64,000 nt of DNA. Source: a virus (Duplodnaviria; Caudoviricetes). A program made the position numbers and the translations under genes. Where the stretch lies: positions 160,001-224,000 of the IMG/VR virus record IMGVR_UViG_3300028591_000070; one strand, written 5' to 3'. Below the pieces are notes generated by a model, which did not search any database, was not told where the DNA came from, and saw only the letters and a program-made list of their open reading frames with translations. Position 1 is the stretch's first letter. Each line of letters opens with the position of its first letter. Of this stretch, positions 23,245 through 23,789 are shown piece by piece.

Positions 23245-23271
23245 ATAAAAAAGCTCTCCGAAAGGAGAGCT
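23245..23271 (-). terminator. attenuator terminator of tRNA operon 3
   Basis: AGCTCTCC-TTTC-GGAGAGC followed by TTTTTTATTTT just 5' of tRNA-Asn. Confidence 0.9.
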
Positions 23272-23300
23272 CATAAAACTTTTTTAATTATATAGTTTTA

Positions 23301-23402
23301 TTAACTCTCTCTTTTATACAAAGTAGTTTCTTCTGTCCCATAATCATATGTTACATTTTCATAAGAGAAATTATTATTGTAATCATAATTCATAGTAAAC
23401 AT
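23301..23402 (-). CDS. leader peptide 3 MFTMNYDYNNNFSYENVTYDYGTEETTLYKRES (attenuator of tRNA operon 3)
   Basis: GGAGGAG SD; 22 of codons 3-27 are N/Y/D/M/T/E/G, the tRNAs downstream; 3' end complementary to terminator 5' arm. Confidence 0.88.
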   Translation of the reverse strand: MFTMNYDYNNNFSYENVTYDYGTEETTLYKRES

Positions 23403-23789
23403 TGAAAATCTACTCCTCCAAATTAAGTTTTATATTTTAATTAGTACAATCATTAAAAATGATTGATGTATTTATATTAACATACTTTTGAAAAGTATGC
23501 TAAATATTTTCAAAGAAAAGCTCCAAAACTTTCAACTGATTAGAAAGAAAAAAGCTTATGCTAAAGCTCGATCCAACTTGCTACAATAGGGTAAGCTAAG
23601 CTGATTGTCCATACTTTAGTTTCATTAATCGGGGATGCCCGATTAAAGGCAACCTTCCACCACCAAGTTTCATTAATGTTTCTGAGAAGGAAGCTTCAAA
23701 AAACCTGGAAACAAATACCTTATTTAGAATATACTCAAATCTTATAAAAAGTTCAAGTAATTTCTAATGTTTTTCCATTTACAAATAAA

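Follow-up and report, generated by a model that had tools for sequence, protein, structure and literature searches.

A unit near position 23 kb of the phage DNA analysed here probably constitutes a ribosome-mediated (leader-peptide) transcription attenuator of the trp/ilv type, gating an operon of phage tRNA genes. This prediction, made from sequence and computed folds, concerns a stretch of 64,000 nucleotides (hereafter the window, to which all positions refer unless stated otherwise) that corresponds to bases 160001-224000 of the 385,934-bp virus record IMGVR_UViG_3300028591_000070 (31.7% G+C). An earlier note on the same DNA had read the unit as a leader-peptide attenuator; that reading is now supported, on computational grounds, by the anatomy of the unit, the exclusive folds of its RNA, a frame-specific match between leader codons and tRNA genes, two paralogues and signs of purifying selection.

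The genome is rich in tRNA genes. ARAGORN identified 46 of them, all on the minus strand, and 45 of the 46 lie inside the window together with a tmRNA gene. A megablast search with 6 kb of sequence retrieved no DNA-level relative among deposited phage genomes, and protein-level matches among deposited phages were restricted to the Lak megaphages and weak (30-35%). Searches by pattern and by protein sequence brought up 12 distinct orthologues of the unit near 23 kb, their source being rumen and gut assemblies; a 128-residue protein encoded in the neighbourhood is confined to a narrow clade, with at least 74% identity. Two further hits, L003 and L007, proved to be chance matches to the promoter pattern and were ruled out as unrelated to the unit.

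Layout and predicted folds of the leader region

The elements that the earlier note had assigned to the attenuator (ORF, terminator, pairing and tRNA block) were all found on the minus strand at the places it gave (Table 1). The start codon that it proposed, ATG 23402, is present; it opens the 33-codon ORF and follows the Shine-Dalgarno sequence at a spacing that falls at the long end of the usual range. A Shine-Dalgarno core is found upstream of 146 of the 277 long ORFs of the phage. Gene callers annotated the leader as a gene on related contigs, with a product of 33 or 34 residues.

Table 1. Features of the predicted attenuator and of the tRNA block behind it, with the leaders of the two paralogous units
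Feature	Position	Strand	Remarks
Promoter-like box 1, extended -10-like, ATGTTAATAT	23474..23483	minus	invariant in three paralogous units
Short inverted repeat between the boxes, possible 5' hairpin	23449..23465	minus	differing stems in all three units
Promoter-like box 2, TGTACTAATTA	23438..23448	minus
Shine-Dalgarno GGAGGAG, 10 nt before leader ATG	23419-23413	minus	read from sequence
Leader ORF, 33 codons + TAA	23402..23301	minus	read from sequence; own block reads 22-25/33 codons, the other blocks 4 and 2-3
Proposed sensor segment, codons 2-26	23325..23399	minus	putative boundary, assuming a ribosome footprint of ~14 nt
Second in-frame TAA directly after leader stop (tandem TAA TAA)	23300-23298	minus
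Antiterminator 5' arm: codons 30-33, both stop codons, 4 nt more	23294..23313	minus	from folds
Antiterminator 3' arm, including the entire terminator 5' arm (23272-23264)	23262..23280	minus	from folds
Intrinsic terminator: 9-bp stem, 5 G-C pairs, 4-nt loop, T-run	23272..23251, T-run to 23241	minus
Controlled block, 11 tRNA genes, structured spacers	21451..23239	minus	ARAGORN
Operon-closing terminator: 7-bp G+C-rich stem, 14-nt loop, T-run	21234..21273	minus	read from sequence
Leader of paralogous unit	unit 4148-3883		own block reads 22/35 codons, the other blocks 1 and 10-11
Leader of paralogous unit	unit 9305-9025		own block reads 26-38/45 codons, the other blocks 3 and 6-8

The terminator behind the leader ranked first of 12 terminator-like sites in a 12-kb stretch, shuffled versions of which gave 5.9 +/- 2.3 sites; its hairpin has a computed energy of -14.9 kcal/mol. 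The first gene of the block, encoding tRNA-Asn, begins at 23239, 2 nt past the end of the T-run. Since this arrangement leaves no room for a promoter in between, each transcript of the block must cross the terminator. When the 3' arm of the terminator was withheld from folding, an 18-bp antiterminator formed at -15.6 kcal/mol (z -5.2), and none of 200 shuffles was as stable. The pairing noticed earlier, 15 of 16 positions, comes to 14 Watson-Crick pairs, one G.U pair and one A.G mismatch, and thus holds with the wobble counted. All nine nucleotides of the terminator 5' arm sit within the antiterminator, so that by these models the two structures are mutually exclusive and cannot both form.

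Evaluated on one sequence alongside the terminator, the antiterminator has an energy of -16.0 kcal/mol. Its upper 8 bp are compatible with the terminator, and terminator and upper A-U hairpin together reach -18.6 kcal/mol. With the two states so close in energy, which of them prevails should depend on the order in which the RNA folds as it is transcribed. The minimum-energy fold of the full-length leader region contains the terminator; no clear pause or 1:2 hairpin was seen in this fold, only weak local pairing. An equilibrium model of ribosome occupancy with a fixed footprint returned the state lacking the terminator only for stalls at about codons 10-19, a result that depends on the footprint assumed, partly conflicts with the kinetic picture and was not counted as evidence. 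Because this interval is narrow, a wider sensing window rests on kinetic reasoning.

The leader is preceded by a promoter-like module made of two boxes. Box 1 occurs ten times in the 386-kb genome, always on the minus strand and before genes or tRNAs, as exemplified by a copy 26 nt before the tRNA-Arg at 15163. At genome position 152881 (7119 bases before the start of the window, minus strand), ATGTTAATAT is oddly nested in a terminator-like hairpin, whose loop contains it and which immediately precedes a solitary tRNA-Leu. The pair ATGTTAATAT plus TGTACTAATTA, 15-30 nt apart, was found exactly three times in the 386 kb, each time 70-100 nt before a leader ATG: in the unit near 23 kb and in two paralogous units, both in the window. 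In the paralogues, too, terminators (3920-3890 and 9062-9037) abut tRNA genes and have short ORFs upstream, which AGGAG precedes as Shine-Dalgarno sequence by 7 and 9 nt. The three units have the promoter-like region and 5' UTR in common over about 75 nt, whereas each has a leader and a terminator of its own sequence. None of the three 5' UTRs folded more stably than shuffled sequences (z between 0 and -0.9). In all three units the predicted antiterminator 5' arm lies over the last codons and the stop codon of the leader (z about -5.2 to -5.3).

Two observations concern the surroundings of these units. A tmRNA gene (23790-24155, minus strand) lies directly upstream of the attenuator promoter and encodes a tag peptide of unusually basic composition with LVA at its end. 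A 192-residue ORF (7528-8106, minus strand), flanked by tRNA genes that belong to the second attenuated operon, has a GIY-YIG-like N-terminus and, judged by eye from the translation, may encode a homing endonuclease.

Codon match and sequence conservation

Strict wobble rules let the 11 tRNAs of the operon read 22 of the 33 leader codons, a count that rises to 25 of 33 if U34 is allowed to read whole four-codon boxes. In long phage ORFs the same tRNA set serves 34-40% of codons, which corresponds to 11-13 expected per 33. Windows of 33 codons taken from these long ORFs contained 11.1 +/- 2.7 matches, a fraction of 3e-4 reaching 22, and of 1,432 short ORFs collected genome-wide from every frame, the leader alone attains its level of match. 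The other two frames of the leader gave 8/32 each and the reverse strand 2-10; in 20,000 shuffles of the leader's own bases the count never reached 22, the maximum being 18. The codon match thus exceeds chance and is specific for one frame.

The distribution of the matched codons is uneven. Within codons 2-26, 19-21 of 25 have a reader among the tRNAs of the operon (binomial p from 2e-5 to 7e-6) and four are unserved by the block (two Phe, one Ser, one Val). Mismatches cluster in the last seven codons, where RNA pairing constrains the sequence and only 2-3 match. All seven anticodon species of the block are sampled. Asp and Gly are thinly represented, with two codons and one codon, respectively; the sole Gly codon is GGG, which accounts for 0.1% of the codons of the phage and is read by Gly(UCC), and it is gone in one relative.

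The same relationship was seen in the paralogues. When each leader was scored against each block, the resulting matrix was strongly diagonal across the three units (Table 1). Even serine is split by codon, AGY codons occurring before Ser(GCU) and UCN codons before Ser(UGA). Of the 46 tRNA genes, 36 belong to the three blocks; this set covers every one of the 20 amino acids and, under strict wobble, can read about 85% of codons in the long phage ORFs.

Comparison of the 12 orthologues revealed 8 variable columns out of 152 in leader and switch (5%) versus 91 out of 290 in the upstream spacer (31%; p 2e-11), and the 290-nt spacer has 95 indel columns in addition. Elsewhere the variable share is 11% for promoter and UTR, 3.7% for codons 1-27 and 7% for the part that runs from the 5' arm through the terminator. 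The one indel in the leader is an in-frame Asn codon. No change breaks a stem: those in the arms convert A-U to G.U pairs or fall in loops, although orthologues that are 97-99% identical are too close for true covariation. In the terminator, variation is confined to the loop and the T-run tail. Two A-to-G changes in the first stop codon preserve the pairing in G.U form, and the arm still contains a stop; a change of Tyr-29 to His lies in an unpaired flank. The sensor segment has GAA changed to GAG, GGG to GAG, ATG to ATA and one AAT codon added; the first two and the added AAT remain within the codon set of the block, the GGG change replacing Gly with Glu. Synonymous sites of the leader are as conserved as the rest, with one synonymous change among the 12 sequences.

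The DNA around the unit is less constant. The phosphoesterase gene 2 kb away has only 73-91% DNA identity among relatives. Behind the invariant terminator, the tRNA-Asn gene (23239-23167) has been repeatedly exchanged: at orthologous positions in L008, L009, L013, L025 and L031, at least four unrelated versions were counted, and one relative starts with a different tRNA. Recent exchange of the block may account for part of the conservation. Taken as sequence comparisons, these data support the view that leader and switch are under purifying selection.

In one relative, L022, the first tRNA-Asn is interrupted in the anticodon loop, about 60 nt past the terminator. The insertion begins with a TGTACTAATTA box, and 8 nt after this box an ORF with a Cys/His-rich start opens. 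The insertion is probably a mobile endonuclease gene or an intron.

Proposed mechanism, alternatives and relation to known attenuators

We infer that the leader is translated and that ribosome stalling decides between the folds, and likewise infer which signal acts in nature. In the mechanism that we propose, transcription would start at the promoter-like module near 23483-23438 and a ribosome would load on the 33-codon leader. Quick reading of its Asn, Tyr, Asp, Thr, Glu, Met and Gly(GGG) codons would bring the ribosome to the tandem stops, where it would cover the 5' arm of the antiterminator; the terminator would then fold and RNA polymerase would halt 2 nt before tRNA-Asn. If cognate tRNAs were scarce, damaged or uncharged, the ribosome would stall in codons 2-26 and the antiterminator arm would stay free. 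The same would hold for a leader left untranslated. A free arm would capture the 5' arm of the terminator as soon as this is transcribed, allowing the polymerase to continue into the eleven tRNA genes. As the products of the operon are the very tRNAs tested by the leader, the arrangement would place the supply of usable tRNA under negative feedback.

Stalling cannot separate a missing tRNA from a missing amino acid, and extra tRNA is useless in the latter case. It is possible, though we would not favor it over the opposite, that the leader senses intact, usable tRNA rather than amino acids, and thus serves as a damage sensor. Under such a scheme host defence nucleases or phage-induced turnover would remove Asn, Tyr, Asp, Glu or Thr tRNAs, and the ensuing stall would turn on a replacement set. 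The three operons, with tRNAs for all 20 amino acids, would in that case form a self-regulating, codon-resolved tRNA supply and render phage translation largely independent of the host.

Several other explanations must be weighed against the ribosome-operated switch. If the terminator were a fixed, leaky stop, it would end a short non-coding leader RNA with constant low read-through and the ORF would be incidental. The terminator is indeed canonical, belongs to the minimum-energy full-length fold and has no pause hairpin ahead of it in the leader fold. Yet a fixed stop leaves unexplained the Shine-Dalgarno site, a frame-specific codon match that recurs in two paralogues with other codon sets, the conservation of the unpaired codons 1-27 (3.7% variable columns against 31% in the spacer) and the position of the antiterminator exactly over the stop codon in all three units. 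We therefore consider it unlikely. Nor do we give much credit to the ORF as a gene for a functional small peptide, acidic and aromatic-rich, that has its own terminator and leaves the tRNAs to chance read-through. The Shine-Dalgarno site, the gene calls on related contigs and the near invariance of the peptide would suit such a role, but synonymous sites are equally conserved among the 12 sequences, the Gly-to-Glu replacement is tolerated and stays within the tRNA set, and the two neighbour "peptides", unrelated in sequence, occupy the same scaffold before other tRNA blocks. Taken together, these points make a working peptide very improbable.

The switch could also be real and be flipped by an agent other than the ribosome, namely a phage protein or, in T-box fashion, a tRNA that binds directly to the leader RNA. 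The conserved 5' module common to the three units might bind a shared factor, and tRNA status would be a logical signal. Against this, Rfam found no T-box or known leader family in 19000-24400 (E up to 1), no sequence is common to the three leaders where their codon sets differ, and the match involves the codons of one reading frame instead of a single specifier; such an agent seems decidedly unlikely. The earlier note had further suggested that the leader might respond to queuosine status. In its strong form, the leader would mainly report this modification, or colicin E5-type cleavage of the tRNAs with GUN anticodons (Asn, Tyr, Asp). Asn, Tyr or Asp make up 13 of the 33 leader codons, and the block opens with genes for Asn, Tyr, Asp and Asp. 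However, the U-ending forms among these codons (12 of 13) merely follow a genome-wide bias of 76-90%, the fourth queuosine tRNA, His(GUG), lies behind a different attenuator, the phage encodes no TGT-family homologue, and the other matched codons (Thr, Glu, Met, Gly) are unconnected with queuosine. The suggestion thus found no specific support, and there is very little chance that queuosine or colicin E5-type cleavage is what the leader mainly reports.

The leader-peptide attenuator that we favor has well-known relatives. In enterobacteria, amino-acid operons are attenuated by leaders rich in Ile, Val and Leu codons (ilvGMEDA) or Thr and Ile codons (thrL), and by the trp and his leaders. Like these, the phage unit has, at sequence level, a short ORF with start codon and ribosome-binding site in the 5' leader, its regulatory codons (for several amino acids, as in the multivalent examples) being enriched for the signal that would be sensed. 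An intrinsic terminator lies between leader and controlled genes, and the predicted folds include an antiterminator that excludes this terminator and would be blocked by a ribosome at the end of the ORF, so that here, too, ribosome position would decide. The genes controlled by the known systems serve amino-acid biosynthesis, transport or aminoacylation; those of the phage unit are 11 tRNA genes, not biosynthetic enzymes. Moreover, the phage leader samples seven tRNA species, all of them products of its own operon, and its stop codon lies inside the antiterminator arm. Finally, with no 1:2 hairpin found in the phage leader, an untranslated leader should read through and not terminate, unlike in the enterobacterial operons. 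The design of multivalent leader-peptide attenuators of amino-acid operons has been analysed (PMC1183508).

Another parallel is the pheM-pheST attenuator, in which a leader peptide controls an aminoacyl-tRNA synthetase operon. In both cases leader-peptide attenuation of a translation-apparatus gene would respond to the state of tRNA, but the product of pheM-pheST is a protein that charges one tRNA, and the products of the phage unit are tRNAs, many of which would be tested at once. Leader peptides have also been described before hisS paralogues (PMC2965389). The phage unit would resemble T-box riboswitches in that tRNA status would set the choice between antiterminator and terminator upstream of translation-related genes; T-boxes, unlike the phage unit, bind uncharged tRNA directly through a specifier codon and without a translated ORF. 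An Rfam scan of 19000-24400 matched no leader (Trp, His, Thr, Leu, Phe and others), T-box or riboswitch model.

A similar layout was found in phiCbK (JX100813). There, gp083 (45 codons) is followed by an annotated terminator (49745-49769) and by a Pro/Lys/Leu/Ala/Ser tRNA block that reads 23-29 of its 45 codons, while other blocks read 1 of 45. An ORF of 32 codons that precedes a Phe/Val/Ile/Gln block has 11-12 of its 32 codons read by this block versus 3-4 by others, and in both units the 5' arm of the terminator has an alternative upstream partner. Thus, as in the units described here, a small ORF enriched in codons of the following block precedes a terminator and tRNA genes. phiCbK, a cultured, G+C-rich Caulobacter phage, is unrelated, with no sequence similarity to the unit described here, and in a brief check its antiterminator appeared well downstream of the stop codon and not, as here, over it. 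The phiCbK genome paper mentions neither attenuation nor leaders and does not call the units regulators (PMC3556154).

What would be new here is that the attenuated genes are tRNA genes; described members of the class control genes for amino-acid biosynthesis, transport or synthetases. To our knowledge, hardly any control of phage tRNA genes has been described. The purpose of these genes has long been debated, between codon compensation and escape from tRNA-cutting defences (PMC10264068). A full-text literature search yielded no report of leader-peptide attenuation of tRNA genes, and a survey of attenuators has none before tRNA genes among those listed (PMC2965389). If the proposed mechanism is correct, leader-peptide attenuation would extend from amino-acid and synthetase genes to RNA genes, and the phage would gauge decoding speed codon by codon and make tRNA on demand. 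A leader whose codons mirror the tRNAs of its block would provide a simple sequence signature for spotting such control in other phages. The switch spans about 260 nt and is self-contained, the question is open to direct testing, and a look-alike layout is available in the cultured phage phiCbK.

The tRNA block and its neighbours

The block encodes, in order, Asn(GUU), Tyr(GUA), Asp(GUC) twice, Met(CAU), Thr(UGU), Glu(UUC) twice, Asn(GUU), Gly(UCC) and Met(CAU). The list in the earlier note (Asn, Tyr, two Asp, two Met, Thr, two Glu and Gly(UCC)) was right as far as it went but missed the second Asn. Nine of the 11 exceed the gathering score of the Rfam tRNA model, at 47-60 bits; Tyr (31.9 bits) and the second Met (21.8 bits) matched only the tRNA-Sec model, below its cut-off. 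A scan from 23300 to 21273 for extended -10-like boxes, as distinct from other types of promoter, detected none within the block. The terminator that closes the operon was missed by the consensus scan because its loop is long; it precedes the phosphoesterase gene, whose ATG is at 21209.

An element resembling a Y RNA lies inside the block at 22125-22226 (minus strand). It gives a partial match to YrlA whose 33.9 bits fall short of the gathering score, and a tRNA-like match adjoins it. The phage also encodes a TROVE/Ro60-like protein (12814-14499, minus strand), which suggests, from these sequence matches, a phage Ro-Y RNA pair. Several of the spacers between tRNA genes contain the motif TAATGCAG followed, after a few bases, by GTTACTTC (22013-21978, 21792-21750 and 22240-22210, minus strand), and the motif occurs in one relative as well. 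In L008, the orthologue (L008:4085-4159) of the tRNA-Glu(UUC) at 22388-22314 has the anticodon UUA together with compensating stem changes, and is thus a candidate ochre suppressor in the attenuated operon; the attenuator leader ends in a tandem TAA.

The genome carries a further tRNA-like gene at 19067-19162 (minus strand), recognized by the Rfam tRNA model (39.5 bits) and missed by ARAGORN. The gene after the operon (20166-21209, minus strand) encodes a calcineurin-like phosphoesterase. Its homologues of 46-55% identity do not adjoin tRNA genes. In a more distant phage (L035:6706-9047), a homologue has an AAA_33 kinase-like gene as its neighbour and, about 3 kb farther in the upstream direction, a Thg1-like gene; this neighbourhood hints at a role in RNA-end healing or tRNA repair.
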